A DNA stretch of 63,851 nt from a virus (lineage: Duplodnaviria > Caudoviricetes), in IMG/VR virus record IMGVR_UViG_3300030419_006697, positions 1 to 63,851 of that record. One strand, 5' to 3'. The position numbers were made by a program, and so were the translations under genes. A model generated the notes under the pieces. The model did not search any database. It saw nothing but the letters and a program-made list of their open reading frames with translations, and was not told the DNA's origin. This document shows, in pieces, positions 8,262-59,011 of the stretch (position 1 is its first letter; the number at the start of each line of letters is the position of its first letter).

Positions 8262-10055
8262 ATGTCCAACAAAAAACCAGCAATTGATTACACAAGTAGA
8301 GACTTTACTAGTCTTAAGTTAGATTTAGTAAATTATGCAAGAAGATATTATCCAGACCAGTTTAGAGATTTTACTGCTAATTCATTTGGATCATTAATGT
8401 TAGACACCGTATCGTATGTTGGCGACATTCTCTCTTTCTACCTAGACTATCAGACAAACGAATCATTTTTGTCTACTGCAATAGACTACAACAATATTCT
8501 TAAGCTGGCTAGACAGTTTGGGTATAAACCACGCTTATCACCATCTTCATATGGAGTATTGACTTTTTTCTTACTAATACCGTCAACTAATGGGACGCCA
8601 GATTATGATTACGCGCCGATCTTGAAAAGAGGTAGTGTTTTTAGAACTGGGACTGGAAATTTATTTACATTACTTGAAGATATTAATTTTGCTGATGTAA
8701 CCAAGACTGAAACAGTGGTTGGAGACGTTGATTCTGCCACCGGTGTTCCTACAAGCTTTGCAGTTAGAGCCAGAGGCCAAGCTGTATCTGGAGAATTAAA
8801 TACAATTACTATAGAGGTTGGAGAGTATGAAAAATTCAGAAGGTTACCCATTTCAGATAGTAACATTACAGAAATTGTCTCTGTTGTAGACTCTGAAGGA
8901 AATGTGTATACCGAGGTGGATTATTTGACACAAAATACAATATACGTTCCGATAATAAATCGAAACGAAGATAGAACCACTGTTGCAAACATTCTAAAGC
9001 CAATATCAGTACCTAGAAGATTTGTAGTGGAGAAAGAACAAGATCAGGTAATTTTGCAGTTTGGGTTTGGTACAAATGAAGATGAGGAAAGAATAATAAA
9101 TCCAAGTAACGTGATTATAGAACAACACGGCAAGCAATACATCTCCGATGACTCTTTCGATCCGGCTGCCTTGATCAAGACTGATCGTTTAGGTGTTAGC
9201 CCTTCCGATACTGTTTTGGTTATAACATATCGTGTTAATTCTGCGGAAGACACAAATGCTTCAGTTGGTATTATAAATCAAATAGTTGATCCTTTGTTTG
9301 AATTTAATTCATCTGCTAACTTACTATCAACATCAATTGCGGACGTTCGGTCTAGTTTGGAAGTTATCAACGAAGAAGCGTTTATAGGAGATGTACCATT
9401 TCCCGATTCTCAAGAAATAAAAACTAGAGCTTTTGGGGCATATAGTATGCAAAATCGAATTGTTACAAAACAAGATTTTATGGCAGCTGCTTATGGAATG
9501 CCTTCTAAATTTGGTGCAATTAAGAAAGTTAATGTACTACAAGATAGCGATAGCTTTAATCAACGAAATATAAATATGTATGTGCTTTCTGAAGACAGCA
9601 TTGGCGATCTAACTATTGCCAACAATACCATTAAAAATAATTTAAAAACTTGGCTCTCTAGGTATAAGATGATCAACGATACGATTGATATTTTGGATGC
9701 TAATATTATTAATTTGCAAATTGGCTTTAAAGTGGTGTCGTTTCCAGATACTAACAAATTCTCCTCTTTGCAGGTTGCGAAAGACGATTTACAATCCTTT
9801 TTTGTTAACAGGAATGGTTATGACATAGGCGAACCGTTTAGTATAACTGACATATATGCCGTGCTCAAAAATTCATTAGCAATACTTGACGTTATAGAGG
9901 TCAATGTTGAGGTATTATCTGGCGGTGTTTATTCTGATTCGAATTTTTCTGTGGCTATTAATAAATCTGGCGACGGCCGTAAAATATTTTGCCCAGAAGA
10001 TTCTTGTTTCGAAATCAAATTTCCTGATTCGGATATTATAGGAACCATAGTATAA
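8262..10055 (+). CDS. Baseplate wedge protein, T4 gp6/baseplate J-like
   Basis: N-terminal IDYTSRDFTSLK..L..Y...YYPD.F.DF and later QNRIVTKQDF motif. Confidence 0.88.
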   Translation: MSNKKPAIDYTSRDFTSLKLDLVNYARRYYPDQFRDFTANSFGSLMLDTVSYVGDILSFYLDYQTNESFLSTAIDYNNILKLARQFGYKPRLSPSSYGVLTFFLLIPSTNGTPDYDYAPILKRGSVFRTGTGNLFTLLEDINFADVTKTETVVGDVDSATGVPTSFAVRARGQAVSGELNTITIEVGEYEKFRRLPISDSNITEIVSVVDSEGNVYTEVDYLTQNTIYVPIINRNEDRTTVANILKPISVPRRFVVEKEQDQVILQFGFGTNEDEERIINPSNVIIEQHGKQYISDDSFDPAALIKTDRLGVSPSDTVLVITYRVNSAEDTNASVGIINQIVDPLFEFNSSANLLSTSIADVRSSLEVINEEAFIGDVPFPDSQEIKTRAFGAYSMQNRIVTKQDFMAAAYGMPSKFGAIKKVNVLQDSDSFNQRNINMYVLSEDSIGDLTIANNTIKNNLKTWLSRYKMINDTIDILDANIINLQIGFKVVSFPDTNKFSSLQVAKDDLQSFFVNRNGYDIGEPFSITDIYAVLKNSLAILDVIEVNVEVLSGGVYSDSNFSVAINKSGDGRKIFCPEDSCFEIKFPDSDIIGTIV

Positions 10056-11557
10056 TGAGCATAAAAAGATATTACGCCACAAAAGATAATACAATTACAA
10101 ATGCCTATAAAGCTAATCTTACTACGCGCGGCGTAAGCGGAAATATGGGCCAATCTGATATTTTAGAAGTTTTTAGCATTTATGGACAAGTTAGTTCTAG
10201 CTCTGGCTTGTCTTCCGAGCTTTCAAGGGTCCTTGTTCAATTTGATACATCACAAATTTCAACAGACAGAACAAATGGTGCGATTCCGGCGTCAGGAAGT
10301 GTTAATTTTTATTTAACAATGTATGACGCAGAACACACTCAAACAACTCCAAAAGATTATACATTAGTAGTTTCCGCAATTTCACAGTCTTGGGATGAGG
10401 GCCTAGGCCTCGATATGGAAAATTATACAGATGAAGATTCATCAAACTGGTTATCATCTAGTGGCGTCACAAAATGGGTCGATGATAACGGCAACATACT
10501 TGAAGGGGGAAGCTACAAAACCGGCTCAAATGCGGCACCATTGGAATACCATTTCACTCAATCATTTGATACTGGATTTGAAAATTTAGAAATCGATGTT
10601 AGCCACCTTGTCGAAGATTGGATCAAAGATGTTTCAGGAGGAGGATGGACAAATTATGGTTTCGGCGTCCATCTTACAAGCTCTGATGAAACAGCTACTG
10701 ATTCATATTATACTAAAATGTTCTTTGCAAGAGGTTCTCAATTTTTCTTTAAAAGACCAGTTATTGAGGCGCGCTGGGATGATAGCAAAAAAGACAATAG
10801 AGGTAATTTTCTTTTAAGTTCTTCGTTAGTACCGGCATCTGATAATTTGATGAATCTATATCTTTATAACATCGTGCGTGGAAATTTAACAAATATTCCT
10901 GCAGTTGGAACTAGAGATATGCTTGTCAGTATTTACAGTGGAAGTCAAGCCGGTGCCCCAACAGGGGATAAACTATTTTCACCGGTTGGAGGAGGTGTTG
11001 TAGCGACTGGTGATGTAAACATTACTGCATCGTGGGTGGAAACTGGTATTTATTCTTGCTCTTTTGCTTACGTCTCTTCTAGTATTACAAAAATATTTGA
11101 TGTTTGGCACAGTGGCTCTATTGAATATCATACTGGTTCATCTATTTCTGTTGGCACTTTTGACAGCAAAGATTACAATTTTGATCAAAAATATGTCTCA
11201 AAAGTTACCAATTTAAGAGCAATATATTCAACTAATGAGACAGCTAGGTTCAGGCTTTATGTAAGACAAAAAGATTGGTCTCCAACTATTTATACAGTAG
11301 CGTCGACCGAGATTGAAACTTCAATAATTGAGGATGCTTACTACAAGCTAGCTAGAGTATCTGATAATTTAGAAGTCATTCCTTTTGGCACAGGCTCTTT
11401 AAATCATACACGGCTTTCATATGACACTAGTGGCAGTTATTTCGATTTAAAAATGAATTTGCTAGACACAGACGAGATATATGAATTAAGTTTTGCATAT
11501 GTAATAAACGGTAGCTACGTTGAACAACCCGAAAGATTTAGATTTAGAGTGGAATAA
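10055..11557 (+). CDS. Baseplate-associated virion structural protein (DNRLRE-like beta-sandwich N-terminus)
   Basis: ATKDNTI...SRVLVQFD...SWDEG...P.IEARWDD pattern; TAATG-coupled to the gp6-like gene. Confidence 0.55.
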   Translation: MSIKRYYATKDNTITNAYKANLTTRGVSGNMGQSDILEVFSIYGQVSSSSGLSSELSRVLVQFDTSQISTDRTNGAIPASGSVNFYLTMYDAEHTQTTPKDYTLVVSAISQSWDEGLGLDMENYTDEDSSNWLSSSGVTKWVDDNGNILEGGSYKTGSNAAPLEYHFTQSFDTGFENLEIDVSHLVEDWIKDVSGGGWTNYGFGVHLTSSDETATDSYYTKMFFARGSQFFFKRPVIEARWDDSKKDNRGNFLLSSSLVPASDNLMNLYLYNIVRGNLTNIPAVGTRDMLVSIYSGSQAGAPTGDKLFSPVGGGVVATGDVNITASWVETGIYSCSFAYVSSSITKIFDVWHSGSIEYHTGSSISVGTFDSKDYNFDQKYVSKVTNLRAIYSTNETARFRLYVRQKDWSPTIYTVASTEIETSIIEDAYYKLARVSDNLEVIPFGTGSLNHTRLSYDTSGSYFDLKMNLLDTDEIYELSFAYVINGSYVEQPERFRFRVE

Positions 11558-11560: not shown

Positions 11561-14500
11561 ATGGCTTTAAAAGATTTATTTAAAGAGGCAAAGACACAAT
11601 ATCTAGCCGCTACGTCATTAGATCAATTAACAGGCAATCTTGAATCTGCAGATTATATAAAATTTTATTTAAGAAATAAAGATCGATTTGTCCCGCTTGT
11701 TGATTATTCAAAACCAGAAAATTTTGCTCGTTTTGGATCGGCAGAGAAATATTATTATGATAGCATTAACTGGATAGCGGATAATTATCCATATGATGGC
11801 TCTAAAAAAGAGCAAATATTATGGGAACTTTCCTCTTCTTACCTAGATCTTTACATTTTTGAAAATGACTATCCTAGAACTACTGGTTATGCCGTTTTTA
11901 CAACTGCTAGCTTAACTGCAACAGATGTATCTACTGGCAATTGGGGATCATATGGCGCAGCCGGAACAGCTTCATATGAATACGTTTTTGTAAATGGTGG
12001 CCCCAATGAAGGTATAGGAAATGCAATTTATCTAGATCCCGATTCAGGTGAGGCTAAATATCGTAAAAATGCAAATATATGGGATACTTCAAAAAATAGA
12101 GAATGTAATCTTAAGATAGGCGGAACAGATGGAAATACTGTTGAATTTTGGTTAAAAAAGGCCGCCTTCAATCCAGCAGCTACCAGAAAAGAAGTCATAT
12201 TTGATATTCACACTACATCTTCAATTTCTTCAAGTGCTGATTATGGTCGCCTCCGAATTGAGATGTCTGGTCACGGTGTGGCGACTAATACGCAGTCTCC
12301 ATTTTATATCACATATGTATCTGGAACATCTGGTGTAGCCAATTACAGCATAGGTAGCTCCATTACAACAGCATCTGTTGCTGATAACGAATGGCATCAC
12401 TATGCCTTTCGTATGAAAAATAGTGGCACTGATCTTATTGCTGATTTGTTTATTGATGGCGAACATAATCACCGCATCACTCGATCAGGAGCCGCAATTA
12501 ATTATGTTAGTGGCACTATAGTTGGCAATATTGCTGCATTAGCTACACATCCTTCAGGCACACACGCCGGCGCCCCAGCTGCCACAAAAGGATGGGGAAA
12601 ATTATCTGGCTCAATTGACGAATTTAGATACTGGAAGATTTGGAGAAATTCAGAGCAGATACAGACTAGATGGTTTGATCAATACGGCGGTGGTACGAAT
12701 ACCGATGACGCCAATACGGATTTAGGCGTGTATTACAAGTTTAATGAAGGTATCACTCTTACATCTTCTATTGATTCTAGAGTTTTAGACTTTTCTGGTC
12801 GAGTAAGTAATGGAACCTGGACTGGCTATAGTTCTGAATATTCACGAAATACTGGTTCTGCTATTAATAGCGCAAACATTACTTTAACTAACTTTACAGG
12901 TAGTGAATTTAGAGATCCCATTGTATATAAACAGCATCCAGCTTTTCGAAATCTAGTGAGTTCAAAGCGCCGTGTAGGAAAAGAATATGATTTCACAAAT
13001 TCATCCAATATATATTATAGCTTACCAGCTTGGATAATCGAAGACCACGATGCAAATAATCCTGATAATGATGGTATTATTGATAATTCACTGTGGAATT
13101 TAACGCAAATAATAAGTAGTTATTTTGATGTTGCCGCATCACAAATACAATCTCTGCCTTCATTAGCTCAACCTAATTATCCAAGTGCATCGATGAAACC
13201 AGTTCCGTTTATTGATAGAATATTAGAATCCAAGGGCTTTATAAGCCCGGAGATATTTTCAGCTATTGATGCTCTAGAGTCTTTTGAAAATAGAGACAAC
13301 AACTCTCTTTATAGTCAAAAGATATATGACATCAAGAACACTATTTATCGAAATATATATAACAACTTAACATACATCAACAAATCAAAGGGAACGGAAA
13401 AGTCTTTTAGAAACCTCGTTAGATGCTTTGGCATTGATGATGAGATTTATAAGTTTAATATGTATGGCAATAATGTTGAATACATATTGAGAGATAATTT
13501 TAGAACAATATCTGAAAGATATAGGCTCATTAATTTTAATGACACATTCAACAGCGATGCTGTTGTATATCAGTATTCTAGTAGTGCAAATCCCAATTCT
13601 ACAACTTTTATTTCCGCTAGTAATGTATACGACTCAACACAAGAAGGTGCAGGCTTGCCTTTCACTGTTGAAGCAAATATCATCTTTCCAAACAGAGTTG
13701 ATCAAGGGGATTATCATTCTTTAAGGAAAGACGACACAGCTGTTCGAAATCAATATCCACTGCTGCTGACTTCAAGCTTGTTTGGTATGCATACGGCTAT
13801 CGATACTGACCCAGCTGAAACCACTTGGAATCCTAATGATTACGCTAATTTTATAGTGAGAGCGGTAAAAACAGAAACGTTTACAAATAAGGCATATTTT
13901 GTACTTACAGGCTCTGCCGGCGGCTTTATGCCCGAACTATCCTCTTCTGTCTTTGACGAAGTTTATAGCGATAAAAATTGGCAATTTATGGTATCTTTAT
14001 ACCCATCTGCATATCCGAATGCGAATGAAGTTAGTGGTACAGCTGATAAAGACTATACAGTGCAGTTTTCCGGTATACATAGCATCACAGACACAACAAT
14101 AAATGAATTCACAGTTACTGGAACTATGACATCTACACAAGCAGCTCAATTTCTAGCTAGTCCGAAAAGATTATTTGTAGGCGCTCATCGCACCAACTTC
14201 ACTGGATCCTTAATAACCAGAAGCGATGTCAAGTTTAATACTTTACGTGTTTGGCAAAATAAATTAAGTATTGATGATCTTCGAATGCATTCTCGGAATC
14301 CAAAGAATTATGGATTCTCTGATCCTGAACAGAATGCATATTTGTTCAATACTTCTATAAACAAGGTTTATGTCCCAAATAAAGAGACTCTTCTACTTCA
14401 TTGGAATTTCGATAATGTAACTGGTTCCGATGCTAGCGGCGAATTTATAGTTGAAGATTTAACTTCTGGATCAGTTAGTCAAATTAATAGGTATGGATGG

Positions 14501-17500
14501 TTAGGTAATCTCGCCAAACAGCAATATATTGGAAAGGCATTTGAATTCAGCACCAGCAGTGCTGATGTTGTGGTTATTGATGAAATAGTCACTGCAAGGC
14601 CAAATTTACCGGAGGTAATGAGTAGTGATGACACTATCACTGTAATGCAGAATGACGATGTATACTTTACCAGAGAGAAAAGGCCAATATTTTTCGATCT
14701 TTATGTAGAAAAAAGCGCTTATCAAAATATTTCTGAAGAAATGATGAAATTTATAGCCACCATAGTTGACTTTAACCAACTAATTGGTCAACCGGTTGAT
14801 AGATATCGTGACGAATATAAAGCGCTAGCACAATTAAGACAACTATTCTTTCAAAGAGTCACAAATCCACCAGATATCGATAAATACATAGAATATTTTA
14901 AATGGTTTGATGTTGCCATCTCCGCAATGATACAGCAAATAGCTCCAATGTCTTCTGGACTTTCCGAAAGACCGTTGAGAAATATAATTGAGTCTCACAT
15001 ACTAGAGCGAAATAAATATCGGAGCAAATTCCCATCATATGAATTCAAACAAAGCGATCCAGAAGGGTCTTTGCTTGGTGTTAATGAAATGCTTTATGAG
15101 TGGGATTCTGGACACGCACCGTTAAATGAAAGTCAAAATACAAATTGCAACTGGTGGAAAGACCGAGCTGATCGATCTGGAGTAGGCATTACTTCTGGTG
15201 ATACCGGAGTAGATTCAGATAGAAATACAATATTGACAGTTTTAAATAACCAAAACAACGCATCGGCTCCAAATTTAAGCGGATCAACTGGTACTTATTC
15301 TGGCTCTGTTTTTGCTATTAGAAGATTTGCCAGGCCTTATAAGATCAGAGCTGCTGAAGCGCGCGGCTATGGCGGTGGTGTAAACTTTTCTAAAAATAAA
15401 AATCTAGATTATATTGACCCAATAGTAAAAATATTTGATACAAATACGGCAGTCACAAGAACAAACGAATTACGATTTAATAAGTCAGACTTTTTCTCAT
15501 CCTCTTGCGAAGACGATAGTGCATTAAACGATAAGCCTCCTGTTGATTTCTGGGTAAGAGATTCTGGCCCAGATGCTAATCCAATTGGAACCGGTGAGCA
15601 ATATGCACCATTTAATATTGTTAGTTCCTCTGCGCAAGACACTTTGTTTACAAATGTCAATGTTGTCAACTTACATAATGATACATATGGACCAAACAAA
15701 GAAGTTCCAATGCAAGGTCCGTTTACTGAAAAGTTTGTTGGAGGTAAACAATATCGCCATATTTGGACCAATTTTGATGCATCTGATACTAAACAAAATA
15801 GACCAGAAGGTTGGCGATATGAGGATGGTGCTGCTACTGCGTATATCATTCCTGCTGCCCAAACAGCTCCACAAGTTTTCGATGCAGACTTGCCTCGTGC
15901 TGTTTATTATCGCGACGAAGTAGCTAAAAGACCTGTAAATATCAAAAACCTTCTACAAGGAACTGGTTCAACAGAGGAAGGATTATACACAGTTCTTGGT
16001 AACTATTCGAAAGGCTATGAAATAGTAATGACCAATGGTCGTTCCATCAACAATAGATATCTTGCAGAGTCTGATGGTGAACTTCCAACAACTAGTACTG
16101 ATAATTTTTATATTTCCGGAGCAGTTGATTATACCCTTCCCAGGAGAGACCTAACTGGTAGTAATTCTTTTATTATTGTTAATCGCTTTGCCGCTCCTGG
16201 CGGCCCAGCAACAATGGGCGAAGGAATGCTCGATGTTGAAGCTGCAGAATATAGTGTCTATAATGCTTTGCCATTTAGAAATTTAGAAGTTATTCAACCA
16301 CTAAACGAATTATATTCTGATCATAGCAAACAATTTGGATATTTCAGCGATGCATTCAATTCTGCTAGTTATGTCAGAGCTGGGCTAGCCTATCCCGGGA
16401 CTAGTGGCTCTGTAACTGAAGATAATTATGACGGTAATCCGCCTTCTGCTTCTTTCCACAAGGTCAACAGAAACACAAGAAAACAAATTAAATATGGGAA
16501 TGAATATGCTGGCGATCTTGCCACTATTATCACTGCATCTGTATATGATAATTGGTTTGTGCAACATCAAATTCCACAAACGGATGTTCGATATGCTTGG
16601 ATTACATCTAGCTTGATCGATAACTATTCTGGCCCCGGTCTTTATTGGTTCGAACAGCCAGACTTCAGCAATGCCAGTTTAGCTTCTACTGATCTTACAT
16701 TCTTGAGTGCTAGCGATTCTGGAAGCGGTGATTTTAAAGTTGATTTTGCTGGGTTAAACACTCTTGTTGTTGATAATGTGTTGTCTGCTTCAAATTTGCT
16801 ATCTAGTTCAAATTACTTCAATAATTCATTCTCTACTTTAAACAGCCTAATGGAGACGAATGCGCTAGTATTACACAGAAATGGGCCATATGGATCTGCG
16901 AATTGGAAGCTTTATAAGAAAGATAATCACCCAATTGTGAGAGCACATAGAAGCGAAAATAGATTAAGTTACATAAAACCGCTCACAGTAAAGAACACTG
17001 TAAACAACTTTACATTACAAACTAGAGAAATTGCTTCCGTATTTGAGCCCCCAATAACCAGTAAATATAAGCCATTGGTTCACGATTTGCTAGCAAAGCA
17101 AAGTCAAATAATGCCATTGCCAAATGCTGATGGGACATTTCCGAAGACGAAAACACAAAAAACAGTAATTAACCATTCATATGGAAATAATGTTAACTTT
17201 TTCACAGACCATTCAGAGGATGAGATTGATTTAGATTCATTATTACTCGGCAAAGAAAATAAAGATATTCCACAACAAACAGTGGATATAATAAACTACT
17301 ACATCAATTCGCCTCAAATACCAGAATTTCAGAATCCAATTGCGCAATTCAATTCATTAATGATATCAGAGACTATATTCCCGAAAGGGCAATATACTTA
17401 TCTCTCTAAAATTAGGCAACGTGAAAACTATGTTAATGGGTTTTGGAGAGATAGTCGCACAATTAGAGCCTCGCGAGGCGAAGAAAACCTTGTTCCATTT

Positions 17501-20500
17501 CTGGACTTAACCGTTGTTGAAAATCCTGCTGAATTAAGTGATTATGGTTTAAATATTACTGCTAGCATTTGGGATTTAGATGCCCGTTTGAATTATGCGA
17601 CAGCTTCACCGGGTCGAATTAAATCTGGAACCTTGGAAGGGTCGATATCGAGTGGTGAATTGATGCCAATAATTTCTGGTACTTCTGATCAAGCTGGTTT
17701 GTTGCAAAACTCTTTATACCCCTACAGCCCATATTTATATATCACTGGAGCCTCTGCCCCAGTAAATACAGGTGAGAAATTCGCATTTTATTCGATATTG
17801 GTTCCTCAATACAACAGAAGAGTTGCTAGTGTTATACCGTCAGACACTACTCACGAATATAAATCTGGAGACACTAAATGGGAAGCAGGGGAACAAGCTA
17901 GCCTATCGCCATTTTATGATACATATTCTGATTATGTCGATGACATAAAAAGAACTGGGAAAGGCCATGGCCTGATGCCTGAATTTAGAATGTCAGAACA
18001 TATGGACTTCTATCTTAATCAAGCCTCTGGAGATTTCTTGGTGGACAACACCGCTTCATTCAGTATAACAGGTTCAATTGTCTCTTCTAGTGCGAACAAT
18101 GATTTTTATAAAACCTATTCGAATACTGATTTTCTAGAAACTTTCAGTGTCATAAATGATGATTATAATGAAACAGCCGATGCTACTAAAATTACGCTTT
18201 CTGTGGATGCACTTATAAAATTCTTACCTTATGATGGATTTTATCCTTCAGAGAGAACAACTCAATTATCAAAGATGTTTTTTGAAAGCTATCAGAATAA
18301 TTTTGCGATCACAGGAAACATTTTTAATCGTAGCGGAGAGGGTTTGGAAATTGGAGCTGACTTAAACAATGCGCAAGCAGGATTTATTGGTCCAATTTGG
18401 AAATCACTATTTGCGCCTGGAATTCTTTATAATAGCGTTAAATCAGGAATGGCGGTTGATTATCCGGTACATACAACCAATAACCCCACTTTACCCTTGA
18501 GAATTAGCGGCTCTCCTAATCAAAGAAACAGCTTGGGATATCTAGAAGATATTCCTAGAATTGCTACTGATTTTGATTATAGAATTCCGTTTGAAGCACT
18601 GTTAGATCCAGAAGGAGAAATAGGCCCAGCTGGTCAAATAATAGACAACGAACCTCATCCTTCATCAAGTTTAAATTTAACTGCTTCTTTAGCCGGCACA
18701 GGCAAGAATAATTACAAATTGGCAATGAATAACTTCCTAGCATCAACAATTGACTTTTTCAAAGCCGATGGTAAACTTACTACCTTATCTTCGCTACCAG
18801 ATAATGATCCGAATTTTGGAAATTTTGATTTAAATAAAGAATATAGAATGAGAATTGTTTGTTCGCACGCAAAATTCAAGAGACAATCAGATATAACAAA
18901 ATACTTTTCTACTCTTAATTCTAAAACAACTGCTTCCTTTATTTGGAATCCGCAAAGCTTGGTGATGTATGCCAGAACAGGAAGTGATCCAACAGCTAGA
19001 GCTGATTATTATGGCTCTTCTTTTGGGCCGCCAATATGGAATGGCACATTGTTACAAAATAGCGATTATGGCCTGAACAATGGTTTGTTATATGGTAGCG
19101 CATCTTATGAACCATATACTCCTTCTTATTATGACGGATATAGTCACATTGAATTAATTTACAGGCCAGAAGTAGAAGGCGAGTCGTTGCCTTCAATAGT
19201 ATCTCAATTATCACAAAGTTTTGTCAGATACAAGACAGGATTCCATCAAGGGACAATATCCGGATCTGCAGAAAAATCTGCGATGAACTTGAGTGCTAGT
19301 TTAAATTATCTTCAATTGGCTACCGAGCCAAATGTAATATTTGATCAACTAGGAAACCCAATTCAAATTGGCGGTGATTCTGTTGGAGCAGGAACTAAAT
19401 TGGTAATTCAGCCAAAATGGGAATCACCGGTGTTGAACTTTAAAGACGTAACTGTAACACTGCCCTCAATTGGCTCTGGTTCTGTGGCGCGCGGTATGTG
19501 GCATCAATATGGTTCCATCCCAGTTGGCCAAGAAGGTCTAGTGTTACAAATACAAGATCTAGATAGCTCTGAACTTTCAAATCCAAAACTTACTGGGTCG
19601 CTAGCGGATGTAATGGGATTCAAAAAGACCCCGGTTAAGATCGGCACAATTGCTGAAAGTAAGACAATATCTGAAGCTGTTGTGGCTATACCTTATTACT
19701 TTAGTCCGACTGGAATTCAAAGCAAGTTTTTAATTGAAAGGGATACTGTCGATATGGCTATTGAAATAGTGGATAGCGGCGGCATTTCGCCTGCATTTAA
19801 AGAGATTATAACTGCCTTCCCTGAAAGAAAGCCGACCGAAGAAGTAATCGATATGGTTCGGAAAATGAAAAAATTTGTTATACCTCCAAAATTTGACTTT
19901 GTCACCAATAAAAACATTAAACCTTTTGCTATGTTTATTTTTGATTTTGAGGTTACATTAAGCCAACAAGATTTGGCTAATATTTGGCAAAATTTGACTC
20001 CTAAAGTTGGAACTTCATTCCAAAAAACATCAGTATCTTTACCAGTAGATATTTTTATGCCAAATGAGCAGAAGGGGACTGGTCTTATGGGTGATCGTGT
20101 TAATCCGCTTTTCCCCAATGATGTCAGGAATTTACCAGATACTACTCGCTGGATGGTTTTCAAAGCCAAACAGAGAGCAGCTTATAATTATTTTGCAAAG
20201 ACAGCACAATCTACGGATGATGATCGATATAAATTTAAATTTAATATTGGTGCAGCTGGCGCCGAAAAAGAATCAGTTCCAAACTACAGTTATAATTGGC
20301 CATTTGATTTCTTTAGTTTGGTGGAATTGGCTAAAATAGACACCACAGTTGAAATAACTCCACAAAACACAACAGTAAATTCACCACCTGACAAGGCAAT
20401 TAAGAATGATTATTTTGCGACAGAGGTGTTTGAAGAAGCTTCTGGACAGCCTTCTGCGGTTGCAGCATTTGAAAGTGGACCTTCAGATACTGTTAGCAAA

Positions 20501-39901: not shown

Positions 39902-42100
39902 ATGGCTAAAATACAATATTCACGTTATGAGAAGGGTATTGATCTTCAGGATCACTCCAGTTCTTACTCTAGTAATGCTGGTGCAATCTACCTTTCTGGT
40001 ACGTACATGAACTTTCGAACTGATTTAAGTTTGAACTCATCAGGTATCAGCAATATGTCTGATCCCGAGAGCGCGCAGGATGCCGCAACAAAGGCGTATG
40101 TTGATGCGCAAATCACCGCTCAAGACTTGGATTTCCAAGGCGACACCGGTGGTGCCCTTAGTATCGATCTAGACAGTGAGACACTCACTATCGCTGGTAC
40201 TGCAAACGAAATTGAGACTGCCGGTTCTGGCAACACTCTCACAATCGGTCTTCCCGATAGCGTTACTATTGGAGATGCTCTAACAGTAACCGGACTGCTC
40301 ACCGCCAATGGCAGTGTTGATCTTGGTAATGCTACTAGCGACACCATCACAGCTACTGGTCGTTTTGATTCCGATCTTGTTCCTTCAACTGACAGCGCCC
40401 GCAAGCTCGGTTCTTCGGCACTTCAGTGGTCCGAACTTCACGTTGATGTTGGTTACATTGATCGTCTTGCTGCAGCAATGGACTGCGACAGTCAAGCAAT
40501 GACTAACGTTAACGTTGACTCTGGTAACATCGATGGTACTATCATTGGTGCTGCTTCTCGTGCAGCTGCTAGTGTTACAACTCTAGACGCTAACTCAACC
40601 CTCAACGCTGATGGCGCTGCCACATTTGGTAGTACTGTTAGTGGTTCCGGTGCTGCTCAATTCGCTTCACTTCACTGTGACAGTGTAAATCTCGATGGCG
40701 GTAACATGGACGGTGTCGCTATCGGTGCTGCAGCCCGCTCAACAGCACAATTCACCACAGTTGATGCTAACTCAACTCTTAACGCTTCTGGCGCTGCCAC
40801 TTTCGGTAGCACAGTTAGTGGTTCTGGCGCAGCCCAGTTCGCTTCACTTCACTGTGATAGCGTAAACCTTGACGGTGGTAACATTGATGGTATGACCATC
40901 GCAACTTCCGATGTAACTGTTGGTGCCGGTAAAACACTCGACGTTTCTGCTGGTACTCTAACCACTTCAGCCGCACAGAAACTTGCTATCATGCAGGGTG
41001 CCGCTTCTAACGTTGATATCGGTTCCTATGACCTCCGCGCTGCAACTCTTACTGCCGATGGTCTAACTTCCGGTCGCGTAGTCTTCGCTGGTGCTAACGG
41101 TGTCCTTTCTGATGATTCCGATATGTCTTTCAGCGGTGACACACTTACAGTCACCAAGCTCGGCGCTTTCCAAGCTGCTGGTGCAATTGACTTTGATGAC
41201 CAAAACATGACCAACGTCGACATCGACAGTGGTGCTATGGATGGTGTTGTTATTGGTGCTGCCAGCGCTGCTGCCGCTTCATTCACTACAGTCAATGCTT
41301 CCGGTCAGGTTTCCGGTTCTGCAGCTGGTAAGTTCTTGAGTCTAGCTCTCAACACCGATTCTTTCGAGGTTGATTCATCAGGTAACCTTGATTCCAGCGG
41401 TTATGTCATTGTTGACGGTCGTGGTATGTTTGGTGGTCGTTTGGATGTTACTGGTGCTTTCGTTGCCAAAGGCAACGTTGAACTCGGTGACGCCACAAGC
41501 GACACTATTACAGCAACTGGTCGTTTCGCTTCAGATCTAGTTCCATCAACTGATGGTGCTCGTGACCTAGGTTCTTCCGCTCTAGAGTGGAAAGACCTTT
41601 ACCTAGATGGTGTTGCCTATATGGATGCTGTAGAGGCTGACACACTAAAGGTTGCTGATCTAACTGATAACCGCCTCGTCATCGCTGGTGCAAGTGGTGA
41701 GTTAGAGGATAGTGCCAACCTTACTTACGATGGTACAACTTTCGATATTGCTGCCGCAGTATCGGTTGATGGTAACATCACTCTGGATAACGATCACGAT
41801 GTAAAGGCACGCGCCTTCATCACTTATTCAGACGTCGCCCTTAAAGAGAACGTTGAGACTGTCACAAATGCAATGGAGATGATCCAAGGTCTACGTGGCG
41901 TTTCATACGATCTCAAAAGTGGTGGCAAGCGAGAGTTTGGTTTCATCGCTCAAGAGGTCAACAATGTTGTCCCAGAAGTGGTTCACACCAATGACGGAAT
42001 GATGGGTATCGATTATACTCGTATCACTTCGCTTCTCGTTGAAGCAGTAAAAAGCCAACAAATTGAAATTGCTGCTTTAAAAGCCAAACTAGACAAGTAA
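39902..42100 (+). CDS. 732-aa repetitive fibre protein with C-terminal S74 chaperone domain
   Basis: QDAATKAYVD motif, internal repeats, SDVALKENV...GFIAQEV...PEVV...DYTRITSLLVEAVK. Confidence 0.85.
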   Translation: MAKIQYSRYEKGIDLQDHSSSYSSNAGAIYLSGTYMNFRTDLSLNSSGISNMSDPESAQDAATKAYVDAQITAQDLDFQGDTGGALSIDLDSETLTIAGTANEIETAGSGNTLTIGLPDSVTIGDALTVTGLLTANGSVDLGNATSDTITATGRFDSDLVPSTDSARKLGSSALQWSELHVDVGYIDRLAAAMDCDSQAMTNVNVDSGNIDGTIIGAASRAAASVTTLDANSTLNADGAATFGSTVSGSGAAQFASLHCDSVNLDGGNMDGVAIGAAARSTAQFTTVDANSTLNASGAATFGSTVSGSGAAQFASLHCDSVNLDGGNIDGMTIATSDVTVGAGKTLDVSAGTLTTSAAQKLAIMQGAASNVDIGSYDLRAATLTADGLTSGRVVFAGANGVLSDDSDMSFSGDTLTVTKLGAFQAAGAIDFDDQNMTNVDIDSGAMDGVVIGAASAAAASFTTVNASGQVSGSAAGKFLSLALNTDSFEVDSSGNLDSSGYVIVDGRGMFGGRLDVTGAFVAKGNVELGDATSDTITATGRFASDLVPSTDGARDLGSSALEWKDLYLDGVAYMDAVEADTLKVADLTDNRLVIAGASGELEDSANLTYDGTTFDIAAAVSVDGNITLDNDHDVKARAFITYSDVALKENVETVTNAMEMIQGLRGVSYDLKSGGKREFGFIAQEVNNVVPEVVHTNDGMMGIDYTRITSLLVEAVKSQQIEIAALKAKLDK
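40586..40890 (+). repeat. 177-bp (59-aa) tandem repeat within fibre gene
   Basis: DANSTLNA.GAATFGSTVSGSGAAQFASLHCDSVNLDGGN.DG twice, starting 40586 and 40763. Confidence 0.9.
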
Positions 42101-51205: not shown

Positions 51206-53002
51206 ATGTCTATTTTACAAAAACTTACAGAGGGTGTCGTAAATCGCGACATGCGTAAGGAAGGTGCTGCTCTCCTCGATAAGTGGGAGAAGACAGGTCT
51301 TCTTGAGGGCCTCAATAGCGATTCAGCCAAGAATGGTATGGCTCGTCTACTTGAGAACCAAGCAAAGCAGCTTCTTAAAGAGGCAGCTTCAACAATGGCT
51401 GGTGGAGACGTTGAAGGTTTCGCCGCCGTTGCATTCCCAATCGTTCGCCGTGTTTTCGGTGGTCTTATCGCCAACGATCTCGTCAGCGTTCAACCAATGA
51501 GTCTACCTAGTGGTCTCATTTTCTTCCTAGACTTCACATTTGGTGGTACCGGTACTGGTGCCAACAATGAGAATCCTCGTCTGGGCTTTGCCAATGATAC
51601 TTCCTTGTATGGTGGTGGCAAAGTTGGTTCAGAGATCACCGGAGGTGTCAATCTTAGTGGTGATGAGGGTACCGCCGGCGGCCAGTTTTATAACTTGACC
51701 AATGGTTATGCATCTCCAACCGGTTCAGCAGCGTCTTCAGCTGTTACAGTTAGAATGTCTGGTACTCTTGGTGATAACGGTACAGTTGCCAATAACGGTA
51801 GTACTCCACTCCCAGGTCATGATTCTGGTTATCTAGATGTTGGCGAAGATGGTATGAATTCCATTTTGAGATTTGATCCCGATCTGACTTCTGGATCAGC
51901 CTTTGCTGTTGCAGAATGGACTCCTAGCGATGCAAATCAATTCAATTATGACGATCTCGCATCGATTGCTCATAGCTCCAGTATGGACGGAACCACTTCT
52001 CCGATTACTCTAGTTCGACGCCTTAGTCAACTAAGTAAGAGTGTCGACGGCAGCACTACTAGCCAAACAATTATACGTCTAGTATTCGTTGGTACTGGTA
52101 GTGCAATTGCGGTTAAGGCCCAAACCCAGCTCGGTACCCTTTCTTGGGCCCAAACTGACGACATCGCCGCCGCAAGCGCTACTGGTGCAGTTGTCGGTCA
52201 AGACACTTGGGGTCTAGAGAATAATACCGAAATTCCCGAGATTAACCTCAAAGTCGATTCTGTAAGCGTCACAGCAATGACCAAGAAGCTCAAGGCTAAG
52301 TGGACTCCAGAACTCGGTCAAGACCTTAACGCATACCACAACTTGGATGCAGAGGTTGAGCTTACTTCGCTTCTCTCCGAGCAGATTGCTCTAGAGATTG
52401 ACCGTGAGATTCTTGAGGATCTCGTAAAGGGCGCCACTGCCGGAACTTATTACTGGTCACGTAGTCCTGGTCTATTCGTAAATAAGACAACTGGCGCCGA
52501 AGTTGGTGCTTCCGCAAAAGCTCCTGACTTCACTGGTACTGTTTCTGAATGGTATGAGACTCTTGGTGAGACCATTAACGACGTATCGGCACAGGTCCAC
52601 AGAAAGACACTTCGTGGTGGTGCCAACTTCATCGTTACTTCACCAGAGGTTGCCAACATTCTTGAGTTCACTGCCGGTTTCCGCGCCAACGTAACTGTTG
52701 ACGATGCAAAGGGAACTGCTGGTACTCACCAGGTTGGTACTCTTAGCAAGCGTTACGATGTCTATGTTGATCCTTACTTCCCACGTAACCTAGTTCTCGT
52801 TGGACGTAAAGGTAACAGCTTCCTAGAGAGCGGTTATGTATACGCTCCTTACGTACCACTACAGGTCACTCCCACCATCTTTGGTGTCGAGGACTTCGTA
52901 CCACGTAAGGGTGTCATGACCCGCTACGCCAAGAAGATGGTCCGTCCTGATATGTACGGTCTCGTCGTCGTGCGTGGTCTTCTAGGTGAGAGTGGCGAGT
53001 AA
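51206..53002 (+). CDS. Major capsid protein (T4 gp23-like)
   Basis: AFPIVRRVFGGLIANDLVSVQPMSLPSGLIFFLD, KLKAKWTPELGQDLNAYH, EIDREIL, YAPYVPL, KGVMTRYA. Confidence 0.97.
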   Translation: MSILQKLTEGVVNRDMRKEGAALLDKWEKTGLLEGLNSDSAKNGMARLLENQAKQLLKEAASTMAGGDVEGFAAVAFPIVRRVFGGLIANDLVSVQPMSLPSGLIFFLDFTFGGTGTGANNENPRLGFANDTSLYGGGKVGSEITGGVNLSGDEGTAGGQFYNLTNGYASPTGSAASSAVTVRMSGTLGDNGTVANNGSTPLPGHDSGYLDVGEDGMNSILRFDPDLTSGSAFAVAEWTPSDANQFNYDDLASIAHSSSMDGTTSPITLVRRLSQLSKSVDGSTTSQTIIRLVFVGTGSAIAVKAQTQLGTLSWAQTDDIAAASATGAVVGQDTWGLENNTEIPEINLKVDSVSVTAMTKKLKAKWTPELGQDLNAYHNLDAEVELTSLLSEQIALEIDREILEDLVKGATAGTYYWSRSPGLFVNKTTGAEVGASAKAPDFTGTVSEWYETLGETINDVSAQVHRKTLRGGANFIVTSPEVANILEFTAGFRANVTVDDAKGTAGTHQVGTLSKRYDVYVDPYFPRNLVLVGRKGNSFLESGYVYAPYVPLQVTPTIFGVEDFVPRKGVMTRYAKKMVRPDMYGLVVVRGLLGESGE

Positions 53003-56101: not shown

Positions 56102-59011
56102 ATGCCAGCAAAAGATTTTAAATTTATTTCCCCTGGAGTATTTGTCAATGAGATCGATAATTCTCAATTACCAGCCACTCCAGAAGGCGTTGGACCAGTC
56201 ATTATCGGTCGCGCCGAGCGTGGCCCAGGGCTTATCCCAACACAAGTTGAGTCATTTTCTGAATTTGTGCAATTATTTGGTAATCCAACGCCTGGTGGCC
56301 AAGGAGGAGATATTTCTAGAACTGGAAACTCTTTAGGTCCAACATACGGCGCATACGCTGCACAAGCTTGGCTAAGAAATAACTCTCCTGTTACATATGT
56401 GCGTTTGGTAGGCAGGCAGAATTCAGCTGCTACTAGTGGGGATGCCAAAGGTTTTGCTGGCTGGGACACTCTTCGCACTGATCCTGATAACGGCGCTACA
56501 CAAGGTGGTGCATATGGTCTTTTCGTGTTTCAGTCCGGATCCGGCACATCTCAATCCGCGCAGCTAGCAGCTATATGGTATGTTCAAACCGGGTCGGTTG
56601 CCCTTTCTGGTACTTCTTACAGCGCCTCGGCTGGTGGTGTTCTTGCCGCAGCTTCCGACGAGGAGCACGCCAAAGGTTCATCAATTTATTTTGGCGCCAC
56701 TGGCGATAAAGAATTTAAAGCAATTGTCACTAGTGCTAGTCCATATGATGCTGGTGAGATTATTGACACTAAATTCAATTTTGATTCGACTTCCGAAAAC
56801 TTCATTAGAAAAGTTTTCAATACAAACCCAGTATTAACCAATACTGATATTAGTGCTACTGGCTCTAACTATTGGCTTGGAGAAACGTTTGAGGATGAGG
56901 TTAATAACCTTTTAGGATCAGGCCCAGCCAATCAATACGGCGTCTTGCTTCCGCTATTTTCTGGCACCATTCCAGGCGGCAGTTTCAGAAGAGACTTTAG
57001 CGATCCTCGCACTGGTTGGTTTGTTTCACAAGATCTTTCTACAAATACAGGCTCTTTTGATGCGGCCACACAAACAAAGCTTTTCCGCTTGGTAGCTAAA
57101 AACACAGGCCGATGGGCCTCTAGAAATCTTAAAGTCTCCATTCAGGATATTCGAGCATCAAGCGATCCAGCAAATGCTTACGGCTCTTTCACTGTTGCAG
57201 TCCGCTCAATGGGCGATACTGACAATAGACCACGAATACTAGAGCAATTTAACAATTGCAATCTTAATCCGAATTCGGAAAACTACGTAGCTAGGAAAAT
57301 TGGTGATAAATTCCTAGAATGGGATGATACTGATCGTAGATATCGCTTATATGGAAACCATAACAGTAACTCCAACTATCTTTATGTAGATATGGCCACC
57401 AACGTTGATGAAGGTTTAACCAATCCAGAGTTTCTACCATTTGGTGTCTTTGGGCCACCAAGATTCAGTTCTTTTACGGATTACGAATCACCAGCTAACG
57501 TTGATACTTTGGTCACTGGAGCAACAAATTTCTTGGATGGTCAGTCTTTTGATGAAAGGGTTGTATCCGGTTCCACTAGCGTCACGGCCGTTACCCTTAA
57601 TTTCCCAAAACTTCGCTTAAGGGTGTCGGCTTCAGAAGGCAACCCAACTGATCTTCGCGATGTATGGTTCGGTGTTGATACAACTTTTAATCGCCAAGGT
57701 CGACCTTCTGAAACGATTGGAGATTATACCGGTCCAAAGCCACTTGGCGTAGATATGTTTGTAGCTGACAGCGAAGCAGGCACTGTGGATTCGTGGGTAT
57801 TTACACTGGACGATATGATGAATACCGATGCAATCAGTACTACAAATATTCTAACCGGTACAAATGTGTACGTATCTGGCTCCAGACAGTCGGATCCCAA
57901 AACAAGCGCCGGAAGCCTTCGCGCTGCAAACCCAAATCTTACATATGTTAACTCTTCAAGTTATAAAAACGTTTTGGACAATGGAGCAGATCAATTCACA
58001 ACAGTGCTCCATGGTGGGTATGACGGTCTAGATATCACAGAGTCTGAACCTTTCAGAAATGAATATATACTAGACGGCACAGAGATAACAAACTATGCAT
58101 TCAACTCTCTTAAAATTGCGATTGACTCTTTGAGAGATCCAGAAGTAGTTGAGTTTGATGTTGCTGCTATGCCTGGTATCACAAACAATGTTCTTAACAG
58201 AAATCTTGTTGATATGTGTGAGAATCGTGGCGATGCATTAGCAGTTATCGATCTTAAAGGTGGCTATGTGCCCGAAACAGAGAATACCCAGTCGGTGCAA
58301 GATCGTTTAGGTTCGGTTGCTTCAACGATAAACAACAAAAGACAAAGTTTGCAAATTAACTCAAGTTTTGGTTGCGCATACTACCCATGGGTACAAATTC
58401 AAGACACCATCAATGGAGCGCTTTTATGGGCACCACCTTCAGTAGCGGCTATCGGAGCAATGTCCTATGGCCAGGCGACACAAGAGTTGTGGTTTGCTCC
58501 AGCTGGTTTTACAAGAGGCGGCTTGTCAGTGAACAATGCTGCTGGTGTCCCGGTAGTCGGTGTTCGCGAACGATTGGTTTCGAAAGACCGCGATAAGCTC
58601 TACGAAGCAAACATTAACCCAATTGCGCAATTCCCAGCAGAAGGTATTGTAATCTTTGGCCAAAAGACGCTACAAGTTACTCCATCTGCTTTGGATAGAA
58701 TTAATGTCAGAAGATTGCTAATCTTTGTTAAACGACAAATTTCTAGAATTGCAGCAACATTGTTGTTTGACCAAAATGTTCAGAGCACTTGGAACCGCTT
58801 CCTTGGTAGAGCGGAGCCATTCCTAGCTTCAGTGCAAGCTGGTCTAGGATTAACTGACTATCGCATTATTCTGGATGAGTCAACAACAACTCCAGATTTG
58901 ATTGATAGAAACATTATGTATGCCAAAATTTTCCTTAAGCCGGCTCGCGCCATCGAGTTTATTGCGATTGATTTTGTAATTACAGATTCAGGAGCATCAT
59001 TTGAGGATTAA
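56102..59011 (+). CDS. Tail sheath protein (T4 gp18-like)
   Basis: FISPGVFVNEID N-terminus; YYPWV, WFAPAGFTRG, INPIAQF, FGQKTLQ, DRINVRRL, KPARAIEFIAIDF. Confidence 0.97.
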   Translation: MPAKDFKFISPGVFVNEIDNSQLPATPEGVGPVIIGRAERGPGLIPTQVESFSEFVQLFGNPTPGGQGGDISRTGNSLGPTYGAYAAQAWLRNNSPVTYVRLVGRQNSAATSGDAKGFAGWDTLRTDPDNGATQGGAYGLFVFQSGSGTSQSAQLAAIWYVQTGSVALSGTSYSASAGGVLAAASDEEHAKGSSIYFGATGDKEFKAIVTSASPYDAGEIIDTKFNFDSTSENFIRKVFNTNPVLTNTDISATGSNYWLGETFEDEVNNLLGSGPANQYGVLLPLFSGTIPGGSFRRDFSDPRTGWFVSQDLSTNTGSFDAATQTKLFRLVAKNTGRWASRNLKVSIQDIRASSDPANAYGSFTVAVRSMGDTDNRPRILEQFNNCNLNPNSENYVARKIGDKFLEWDDTDRRYRLYGNHNSNSNYLYVDMATNVDEGLTNPEFLPFGVFGPPRFSSFTDYESPANVDTLVTGATNFLDGQSFDERVVSGSTSVTAVTLNFPKLRLRVSASEGNPTDLRDVWFGVDTTFNRQGRPSETIGDYTGPKPLGVDMFVADSEAGTVDSWVFTLDDMMNTDAISTTNILTGTNVYVSGSRQSDPKTSAGSLRAANPNLTYVNSSSYKNVLDNGADQFTTVLHGGYDGLDITESEPFRNEYILDGTEITNYAFNSLKIAIDSLRDPEVVEFDVAAMPGITNNVLNRNLVDMCENRGDALAVIDLKGGYVPETENTQSVQDRLGSVASTINNKRQSLQINSSFGCAYYPWVQIQDTINGALLWAPPSVAAIGAMSYGQATQELWFAPAGFTRGGLSVNNAAGVPVVGVRERLVSKDRDKLYEANINPIAQFPAEGIVIFGQKTLQVTPSALDRINVRRLLIFVKRQISRIAATLLFDQNVQSTWNRFLGRAEPFLASVQAGLGLTDYRIILDESTTTPDLIDRNIMYAKIFLKPARAIEFIAIDFVITDSGASFED

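Follow-up and report, generated by a model that had tools for sequence, protein, structure and literature searches.

The window, by which we mean the whole stretch of 63,851 nucleotides that was analysed, carries a baseplate module, a fused nuclease and fibre, capsid, neck and sheath genes (Table 1), several of whose products contain the tripeptide [ST][GAS][ST] repeatedly. The 500-aa protein encoded at 10055 has an AF2 model (pLDDT 90.1) which matches the CBM 8wab in a Foldseek search (TMt 0.67-0.71), the 3077-aa protein has a single LamG-like domain (PF13385, residues 189-368), and 29409 and 30475 encode a paralogous pair (E 5e-10). The original prediction held that the carriers have unrelated folds, which is only partly right considering this paralogy and the beta-sandwich chain of the 10055 protein. 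The 39902 fibre contains a Peptidase_S74 chaperone domain, and no Pfam family was found for the 2024-aa protein.

Table 1. Features of the window, with motif counts given as observed vs shuffle expectation
Feature	Position	Strand	Motif count or other evidence
First genes of the baseplate module	2..1733	+	synteny with relatives G001, G003/G004/G006, G017, G027
2024-aa protein, motif absent, depleted	1746..7820	+	0 vs 7.0, z -2.7
gp6-like baseplate wedge protein, internal negative control	8262..10055	+	2 vs 3.1
500-aa baseplate-module protein, beta-sandwich domains (Ig/FN3-like and CBM-like module)	10055..11557	+	15 vs 6.0, z 3.8
3077-aa giant baseplate protein, strongest carrier	11561..20794	+	63 vs 20.8, z 9.6
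Long non-carriers, 1071 aa and 1063 aa	21826..28428	+	1 vs 3.9 and 3 vs 2.0
354-aa carrier, paralogue of 30475	29409..30473	+	11 vs 3.1, z 4.9
400-aa carrier, paralogue of 29409	30475..31677	+	13 vs 3.4, z 5.7
Fused SbcD-SbcC nuclease, non-virion, motif absent	33566..36757	+	0 vs 2.0; Metallophos and SMC_N/AAA_23
Two fibre proteins (38883, 39902)	38883..42100	+	4 vs 2.2 and 7 vs 10.2, at chance
Capsid-protein insertion (residues 114-302)	51545..52111	+	6/8 capsid sites
Tail sheath	56102-59011	+	15 vs 6.8, z 3.4
Variable middle of sheath (residues 145-618), ambiguous carrier	56534..57955	+	15/15 sheath sites

Order-specific excess of the tripeptide

The motif was counted in 42 ORFs of the window, each of which was compared with 1000 composition-preserving shuffles. 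Five of the 42 were enriched: four baseplate proteins (10055, 11561, 29409 and 30475), in which the excess is about 3-fold under composition-preserving and local shuffles alike, and the sheath, where it is weaker. An excess over shuffled sequences, on which the original prediction was to be judged, is therefore present in these five. In the 3077-aa protein it is kept when residues are shuffled within blocks of 40 (z 8.6) or 20 residues (z 8.4). The excess is also specific to the order of the residues, since the permuted and control patterns [GA][ST][ST] (12 vs 12.2), [ST][ST][GA] (17 vs 12.1) and [ST][DN][ST] (11 vs 12.4) are flat, and an unbiased scan of reduced-alphabet tripeptides gave [ST][GA][ST] as its top outlier (71 vs 19.1, z 11.8). 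The preferred form is hydrophobic-[ST]-[GAS]-[ST], with mostly Ser at position 3 and uncharged flanks; each of the three genomes scored has too few Asp and Glu residues at position -1 (0.2-0.4x). A hydrophobic residue precedes the motif 37 times in the 3077-aa protein (6.5 expected, z 12.9), and the motif is enclosed by hydrophobic residues 7 times in the 30475 protein (0.4 expected, z about 10).

The tetrapeptides listed earlier from the 10055 protein and from the proteins of capsid, neck and sheath are all present, and neither SGS nor TGS occurs in the 2024-aa, 1071-aa, 1063-aa (25237) or SbcCD (33566) proteins, as had been read by eye. Of the carriers then named, the five enriched proteins stand, but the 38883 protein and the 39902 fibre, the sites of which sit in internal repeats, the neck (53371; 5 vs 2.5) and the capsid protein taken whole (51206; 8 vs 4.8) are at chance. 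The reported clustering within the capsid protein was borne out, most of its sites falling in a non-core insertion outside the alignment with T4 gp23. The sheath C-terminal core, of which residues 768-969 align to T4 gp18 and 673-967 to the sheath of Flavobacterium phage immuto, contains no site. The enrichment is restricted to the lineage: none of 29 T4 structural proteins reaches z 3, and the four giant structural proteins of cyanophage S-RIM4 all have z<=2.4. The gp6-like wedge protein does not reach z>=3 at any of the 69 loci where it was found (maximum 2.3).

The sugar island of relatives and its link to the motif

The earlier statement that no modifying enzyme is encoded in the window was correct, glycosylation genes being absent from it. 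In relatives, a conserved nuclease-GT4-GT4 block (79/79, 79/79 and 75/79 loci, respectively) is followed by a hypervariable island, which has the baseplate module on its other side. Both the island and the GT4 genes precede the homologues of 2..1733 by a few kb; the gene order was verified. The position of the window's own phage in the tree suggests that it has such an island as well, which, by synteny, would sit just upstream of base 1.

The islands contain soluble sugar-nucleotide, nonulosonic-acid and transferase genes, with epimerases, DegT, GT2, FkbM, CTP_transf_3 and NeuB as abundant families, and CMP-sugar cytidylyltransferase, dehydratase, aminotransferase and methyltransferase genes were also seen. 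NeuB and CTP_transf_3 are both present in the relatives G001 and G024. PF01973, which we take to be the Maf domain, was found in 3 of 148 sampled island ORFs and in none of the 34 proteins scanned from the island region of G001. No flippase, polymerase or polyprenyl-phosphate priming transferase and no kinase or other modifier was found among the 25 Pfam families that are most frequent in the islands, a list beyond which lie 54 rarer families. A search for a transferase reading the motif gave no candidate, as no island-specific family is common to all 10 islands compared. The conserved GT4 pair is retained in genomes lacking the island; the best solved-structure match of its proteins is chlorovirus B736L (PDB 3oy2, E 1.5e-7 and 0.02), and their look-alikes in the Atlas are almost all viral.

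The motif co-varies with the island. Among 31 relatives, all 21 island-bearing genomes have a motif-rich orthologue of the 500-aa protein (z 2.1-7.6), and none of the 10 island-less genomes does (z -1.7 to 2.4; rho 0.79, p 1.7e-7, kinship being ignored). The island-less state corresponds to two changes on the tree, and to at least two independent losses. When 70 loci were scored for two unrelated carriers, 12 were motif-poor in both and the others rich (Spearman 0.57). In island-less genomes the excess is gone from orthologues of similar length that are 33-39% identical to those of the window (BLAST matches). The density of the motif in the giant protein is 19.0 per 1000 aa in rich genomes vs 7.5 in poor ones, in which the amino-acid composition of the protein and the GC content are alike. 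The island-less G017 keeps a residual excess in its 29409 and 30475 orthologues (z 2.0 and 3.0). Among cultured phages, immuto, RM378 and Mel-JY01 come closest to this lineage. Immuto, although only 24-44% identical, shows the same motif pattern and has a GT cluster of its own; the available part of its paper reports fdPreQ1 in DNA by LC-MS and contains the word "glycosyl" 0 times.

Candidate readings of the motif

The density of the motif is maintained while the positions of its sites turn over. A z>=2 is reached by 47 of the 51 homologues in the 500-aa family, whose sites are spread over 112 alignment columns; 2 of these columns are occupied in at least 80% of the sequences. The orthologues of the window and G001 have nearly equal numbers of sites in 11561, 10055, 29409 and 30475 (63/63, 15/16, 11/11 and 13/12), of which 24, 9, 6 and 7, respectively, share an alignment column. 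Conservation, one of the points on which the sequon was to be judged, is thus seen for density and not for most positions. In the 29409 family, each of the 63 aligned homologues has more sites than its shuffles have on average (10.4 vs 3.6 as means over the family). At 13 columns where the motif occurs in 40-96% of rich orthologues, it survives in 10 of the 130 cells of poor-clade proteins, with charged or proline tripeptides such as KRK, EDE, EGE and PDP as replacements (SSS to KRK, SGS to EDE), which indicates that it is dispensable for the fold. The sites may be exposed at the surface: those of the sheath and capsid lie in non-core insertions, and replacement by K, E, D and P is tolerated. 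The 15 sites in the model of the 500-aa protein, on the other hand, have the same secondary-structure surroundings as background (coil 10/15 vs 48%, p 0.2).

Since the motif is dense in outer tail proteins and fades where the island is absent, it probably marks the virion for coating with sugars. We consider it somewhat more likely than not that the motif is the acceptor at which exposed proteins of the virion are O-glycosylated in the cytoplasm by enzymes of the phage. Hydrophobic-[ST]-[GAS]-[ST], lying on exposed loops and at the ends of strands in fibre proteins and peripheral proteins of the baseplate, would receive sugars supplied by the soluble sugar-nucleotide enzymes and glycosyltransferases of the island; the glycosylation of Ser/Thr and its dependence on an enzyme that reads the motif are what we infer from these patterns. 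The sequon originally proposed gains strong, if indirect, support from the co-variation in 31 relatives, the agreement of two carriers, the repeated losses and the radical polar substitutions. Points against it are the sheath signal, which ignores the island, the retention of the GT4 pair in island-less genomes, the residual excess in G017, the partly discordant RM378, three invariant sites in the 29409 family, the small number of independent losses (two) and the published reading of such islands as modifiers of the host O-antigen.

It is unlikely, in our estimation, that the motif is instead an unmodified structural habit of the lineage, a preference for Ser/Thr-small-Ser in hairpin turns, in edge strands and where strands end in beta-sandwich and fibre proteins, which gives an uncharged polar surface. 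Motif and island would then have been lost together because ecology or host changed, with no mechanistic link between them. Indeed, 13 of the 15 sites in the model of the 500-aa protein contact coil or a strand end. The motifs of G001 fibres lie within tandem repeats, and three sites are invariant in the 63 homologues of the 29409 family and may be structural. The sheath signal is independent of the island (z 2.7 in the island-less G017, 1.3 in the island-bearing G001 and 2.5 in T4 gp18), and the alternating pattern [GA][ST][GA] is likewise enriched (z 4.1) and is the top robust pattern of S-RIM4. Such a preference does not, however, account for island-less orthologues of comparable length without any excess, for sites replaced by charged or proline tripeptides, or for a density maintained despite turnover. 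G, A and S are interchangeable at the middle position, which is therefore not a positive-phi turn glycine, and the beta-rich proteins of T4 and S-RIM4 are without the excess.

That the motif is functional without being the target of the island seems quite improbable. It could be the acceptor of a host enzyme, carry another Ser/Thr modification, or contact a factor of the host surface or of assembly, and lineages without the island would infect hosts in which it is no longer needed. The motif is selected as a class, in variable and probably exposed regions, and the islands yielded no transferase reading it; RM378 has the GT4 pair without an adjoining island and yet three enriched structural proteins, its 29409/30475 orthologue not being one of them. 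Against this stand the tight and twice-replicated link to the island, a dose relation, albeit weak, when the genomes with an island are taken alone (rho 0.46, p 0.04), and the content of the islands, which are sugar pathways whose commonest families include no other modifiers. The possibility that composition, low complexity or repetition of a single domain family created the excess is largely refuted, and its chance of being the explanation is negligible: the carriers are richer in Ser, Thr and Gly, two are paralogous and fibre sites lie in repeats, but the excess withstands the 20-residue shuffles, permuted motifs are flat, the 500-aa protein and 30475 are not significantly similar (best E 0.29), and poor-clade orthologues of similar composition have the motif at expectation.

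Returning to the acceptor reading, chances are about even that an abundant lineage of ocean myoviruses covers its distal virion surface with strain-specific glycans, including nonulosonic acids, attached in the cytoplasm to dozens of hydrophobic-[ST]-[GAS]-[ST] copies per baseplate protein, as a viral counterpart of O-antigen diversity whose sequon decays to random after island loss. Should this hold, no O-glycosylation sequon of a phage virion would have been defined by sequence before, and the GT-rich hypervariable islands of marine myophages would be factories for the virion coat and not modifiers of the host surface. It would bear on host range, on the stickiness and decay of particles in seawater and on the evasion of defences or grazing, and a short cytoplasmic sequon would be of use in glyco-engineering.

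Comparison with known systems

Chloroviruses glycosylate their own capsid with their own enzymes, and the similarity of the conserved GT4 proteins to chlorovirus B736L is weak. The GtfA/GtfB pair, adjacent GT4-fold proteins, O-GlcNAcylates serine-rich-repeat adhesins at Ser-small-Ser acceptors, which is reminiscent of the adjacent GT4 pair and the Ser-small-Ser candidate acceptors described here. The phage pair is not assigned to this system, its sequence matches to Gtf1 structures being marginal (E 0.04 and 0.45) and those to the chlorovirus glycosyltransferase the best. The general O-glycosylation of Bacteroidota uses the sequon D-[ST]-[AILVMT] with transfer in the periplasm; it does not fit the depletion of acidic residues before the motif, and its membrane components were not found in the G001 and immuto clusters. 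A lipid-linked O-antigen or capsule pathway, as which phage GT islands are usually read, was likewise rejected: a scan by hydropathy only found no polytopic membrane protein (no ORF with at least three TM-like segments) in the G001 and immuto clusters, and the 25 most frequent island families include none of its flippases, polymerases or priming transferases.

As described in the available part of PMC7591256, the O-glycosylation of flagellin with nonulosonic acids (Maf, FlmG) uses soluble nucleotide-sugar donors from NeuB/CMP-transferase pathways, without oligosaccharyltransferase or flippase; its Ser/Thr acceptors lack a consensus sequence and belong to domains exposed at the surface of a structure that assembles itself. 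The phage clusters resemble it in having NeuB and CTP_transf_3 and, in the two clusters examined, no polytopic membrane proteins; they differ in that the candidate acceptors are virion proteins with a short, statistically defined motif, and that few island ORFs are Maf-like. Pelagimyophages and cyanomyophages have a large island without conserved synteny, which adjoins the tail genes and abounds in genes for glycosyltransferases and sugar metabolism, and which the accessible portion of PMC7029224 reads as modification of the host O-chain (O-antigen) and avoidance of coinfection. Unlike in that reading, the island considered here, from a different lineage, co-varies with a motif of virion proteins and is without export machinery. 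Finally, phage-encoded glycosyltransferases decorate virion proteins of mycobacteriophages, with glycans on the C-terminal ends of the subunits that build capsid and tail tube (Freeman et al. 2023 as cited in PMC12619734, seen in excerpt), whereas the candidate sites in the present lineage are dozens of internal motifs, mainly in the baseplate, tied to a hypervariable sugar island.

Motif excess among the proteins of the window

The window is a fragment of 63.9 kb that spans the structural module of a far-T4-like myovirus (gp6-like wedge, sheath, gp23-like capsid protein, portal and terminase). Judged by the capsid protein, its closest relatives in culture are Rhodothermus phage RM378, Flavobacterium phage immuto and Microcystis phage Mel-JY01, and a blastn search of the window against phages gave no match. 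The lineage is abundant in marine metagenomes: of the 29409 protein alone (proteins are named by the start position of their ORF), more than 7,900 homologues were found among 8,000 candidates scored.

The [ST][GAS][ST] tripeptide, which the original prediction had proposed as a sequon for virion modification, was counted in 42 translated ORFs and compared with 1000 shuffles of each. The examples quoted there are all present, and five of the 42 proteins exceed these composition-preserving shuffles, namely 10055, 11561, 29409, 30475 and the sheath. The other proposed carriers (38883, the 39902 fibre, the neck protein and the capsid protein taken whole) stay at chance. Within the capsid protein, the sites do cluster in the non-core insertion as described (6 of 8 in residues 114–302), and all 15 sheath sites fall within residues 145–618, outside the T4-alignable core.

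Features in the window and in relatives (G numbers, genomes; L numbers, loci), with motif sites observed and expected where counted
Feature	Position	Observed / expected	Remarks
2024-aa protein	window 1746–7820	0 / 7.0	
500-aa protein	window 10055–11557	15 / 6.0	module resembling a chondroitin-sulfate-binding CBM (TMt 0.67–0.71)
3077-aa giant	window, from 11561	63 / 20.8	z 9.6
354-aa protein	window, from 29409	11 / 3.1	
400-aa protein	window, from 30475	13 / 3.4	
SbcD–SbcC protein	window 33566–36757		Metallophos and SMC_N/AAA_23 fused in a single 1063-aa ORF
LamG/ConA-like protein	window 36949–37824	4 / 2.5	PF13385, E 5e-18; not enriched
Sheath	window 56102–59011	15 / 6.8	
Long protein	G017 76155–78284 (L218)	1 / 11.4	significantly depleted; Ser/Thr/Gly-rich
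Long protein	Mel-JY01 L024 28583–35350	2 / 11.8	significantly depleted
Sugar island	G001 96.3–118.7 kb		three epimerase/dehydratases, two UDP-Glc dehydrogenases, DegT aminotransferase, NeuB, CMP-sugar cytidylyltransferase, PIG-L, formyltransferase, carbamoyltransferase, methyltransferases, two GT2 genes, several GT1-type glycosyltransferase genes
224-aa protein	G001 123139–123813 (L012:3139–3813)		beside the nuclease; conserved in 73/79 loci; PF07737 metalloprotease-type match under the cut-off (24.0 bits vs 27.4)
Minimal island	G024, L233 959–2557		ends with a GlnA-like ligase and an S-adenosylmethionine lyase gene

When the shuffles of the giant are confined to blocks of 40 or 20 residues, z is still 8.6 and 8.4, respectively, which rules out local low complexity as the source of the motif. 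The statement that the carriers have unrelated folds holds in part, 29409 and 30475 being paralogues. The permuted motifs [GA][ST][ST], [ST][ST][GA], [ST][DN][ST] and [ST]T[ST] are flat. In an unbiased reduced-alphabet tripeptide scan, [ST][GA][ST] ranks first by far in the four baseplate proteins (71 vs 19.1, z 11.8) and is the top robust pattern in sheath, capsid and neck combined, while it is among the most depleted tripeptides in four long non-carriers. Hydrophobic residues are favoured 1.6–1.8-fold at position –1, where charged residues are excluded, and 1.5-fold at +3, where charged residues are mostly depleted; the third motif residue is mostly Ser, all of this being the same in three genomes. 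The codons at the sites are varied, so the signal does not lie at the DNA level. For motif Ala, GCT is the codon in 69% of 32 cases, compared with 37% at other positions of these genes, and T-ending codons are likewise favoured for motif Ser (window 10055–20794, 29409–31677 and 56102–59011). Since the LamG/ConA-like protein is not enriched, the LamG fold as such is not the carrier. The 2024-aa protein of the window is significantly depleted of the motif, like the long proteins of G017 and Mel-JY01. The depleted G017 gene occupies the genomic position of the motif-laden fibres of G001.

Occurrence in other phages and turnover of sites

The excess is not generic to such structural proteins. None of 29 structural proteins of T4 reaches z 3 (gp34, 13 sites vs 10.0 expected; gp37, 10 vs 9.6; gp7, 3 vs 3.2), and in the giant structural proteins of cyanophage S-RIM4 (6026, 2407, 1804 and 1380 aa) z does not exceed 2.4, nor is the hydrophobic-preceded motif in excess there. 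The S-RIM4 giants (L025/L026) are enriched instead for the complementary [GA][ST][GA] (106 vs 60.3, z 6.6). In G001, which is syntenic with the window at 30–70% amino-acid identity, the same orthologues are enriched, two fibre proteins carry the motif inside tandem repeats, and no non-structural protein of at least 250 aa shows enrichment. The pattern is repeated in immuto, at just 24–44% identity, where it is limited to the baseplate, fibre and spike module; in Mel-JY01 it is found in the sheath and the neck, and in RM378 it is weak, with the 29409/30475 orthologue not enriched. The enrichment is real and lineage-specific.

Among 63 homologues of 29409, sites are conserved as a class while their residues drift (TAS, TSS, SAS, SSS and SGT in one column), G, A and S being interchangeable in the middle. 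Enrichment is seen in 47 of 51 diverse homologues of the 500-aa protein (mean 13.3 vs 4.7), but their sites are spread over 112 alignment columns, of which just 2 are occupied in at least 80% of the sequences, and the motif columns are conserved no better than average. Likewise, site counts in window/G001 orthologues are near equal (63/63, 15/16, 11/11 and 13/12), with just 24, 9, 6 and 7 sites sharing a column. Density is therefore maintained more than position. Many homologues of the 500-aa protein have large insertions after about residue 150–200, with lengths up to 1288 aa. The 500-aa protein is modelled (pLDDT 90.1) as beta-sandwich domains in a chain, including a CBM-like one. In this model 13 of 15 sites involve coil, a hairpin turn or a strand end, a context not significantly different from background. 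The 29409 model is poor (pLDDT 62) and Foldseek gave no match for it at E ≤ 0.001.

The sugar island of relatives and its covariation with the motif

The window encodes no glycosylation gene, as the original prediction had stated. In G001, a gene-dense stretch of about 22 kb lies between the baseplate module and a GT4 gene pair (see table), and a cluster of immuto's own holds a different set of sugar genes; both clusters lack polytopic membrane proteins. The 427-aa GT4 occurs in just 7 of 50,697 phage records, which are the phages nearest by capsid protein. It matches 158 IMG/VR stretches, from which 79 other loci, 61–70% identical, were kept (G003's GT4 as query returned 3 loci). In G001 (L011, L012 and L020, 96.3–122.1 kb) and these 79 loci (L028–L106), the order is PhoH, small genes, PD-(D/E)XK nuclease, 427-aa GT4, a second GT4 of about 400–700 aa and the island. 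The nuclease–GT4–GT4 block is conserved (79/79, 79/79 and 75/79 loci), and the region following it is hypervariable, G001's island genes recurring in 0–24 of the 79. The ORFs tallied there (148 of 520) are mostly sugar-nucleotide enzymes, GT2, FkbM methyltransferases and CTP_transf_3, with 3 PF01973 ORFs. Among solved structures, a chlorovirus glycosyltransferase matches both GT4s best; kinship with GtfA/GtfB was rejected. The 427-aa GT4 homologues of G021, G026 and G031, two of which are island-bearing, have one in-frame stop each (TAA, TAG and TAA, respectively), for which pseudogene formation, sequencing error and recoding are all possible causes.

Two representatives of the 500-aa family are almost without sites, and in their genomes both this protein and the giant (>3300 aa) are at chance. 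The 70 loci with both carriers are bimodal, 12 being poor in both and the rest rich, and motif levels in the two carriers are correlated (Spearman 0.57, p 2e-7); at none of these loci is the gp6-like neighbour enriched. In a second sample of 54 loci, sharing at least three contigs with the first, 53 are rich and L286 is the one near-exception. The GT4 was located in 31 genomes having it on one contig with a carrier. The 500-aa z is –1.7 to 2.4 in all 10 genomes whose GT4-to-carrier distance is 13.6–17.9 kb and 2.1–7.6 in all 21 with 22.5–41.9 kb (rho 0.79, p 1.7e-7, uncorrected for phylogeny); for the island-bearing genomes taken alone, rho is 0.46 (p 0.04). Gene order shows the island to be precisely absent from the short-distance genomes. 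Four of these lack an epimerase gene, and a GT2 is present in just one, at a different location; in G017 (145 kb), none of the island genes of G001 or immuto has a homologue. When the gp6 tree is rooted with immuto, which is motif-rich, the 12 poor genomes group in a single clade (SH-aLRT 98), itself embedded in rich genomes. L286 falls outside it, so that two changes are needed to account for the island-less state. The genome of P0224, a possible third low-motif lineage, was not found in the viral collection (best identity 43–44%). From its position in the tree among rich genomes, we infer that the window's own phage would carry an island.

Possible meaning of the motif

The simplest interpretation makes the motif a candidate sequon, the acceptor of a phage-encoded cytoplasmic O-glycosylation that would act on exposed virion proteins. 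The hypothesis of the original prediction thus comes out as the best-supported explanation, although unproven, and we rate it as somewhat better than an even chance. GC content is the same in rich and poor genomes and composition-based expectation mostly similar, but in the giant the sites observed per 1000 aa number 19.0 and 7.5, respectively. At 13 columns bearing a site in 40–96% of 47 rich orthologues, a site remains in 10 of the 130 cells of 10 poor-clade proteins. Replacements include KRK, EDE, TDE, EGE, PDP, IGT and LGS, so these positions tolerate radical polar change. The motif is dispensable for the fold, yet it is strongly retained in genomes that have the island. An unmodified structural or surface preference is unlikely, and service in some other motif-dependent function is more doubtful still. 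Two observations count against a sequon: the sheath signal is independent of the island, and island-less G017 keeps z 2–3 in the 29409/30475 orthologues.

Further points against the sequon reading are that the conserved GT4 pair survives island loss, that no island family is universal among the 10 islands compared, that RM378 is partly discordant and that independent island losses number just two. Since the GT4 is also present in island-less genomes, it cannot alone explain the motif. The length of the second GT4 does not discriminate rich from poor genomes, and the C-terminal domain of G001's 696-aa GT4, present in just 6 of 10 islands, is no universal reader; the minimal island of G024 holds no recognisable extra transferase. 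DNA seems an unlikely glycan acceptor, at least in immuto, since LC-MS of its DNA found fdPreQ1 and the available portion of the immuto paper does not mention glycosylation.

In the accessible part of the literature searched, no virion sequon and no nonulosonic-acid glycosylation of a phage particle was found; a known precedent is mycobacteriophage C-terminal glycosylation, as cited in the available text of PMC12619734. Islands of similar kind have been published as host O-antigen modification, according to the part of PMC7029224 available, which also speaks against a sequon. The relatives' island does resemble an O-antigen locus, but differs from it by the absence of export genes. In flagellin glycosylation, as described in the available part of PMC7591256, donors are soluble, no oligosaccharyltransferase is involved and the acceptor domains are surface-exposed. 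The proposed phage system would be alike in all three respects, and would differ in that a short motif can be defined.
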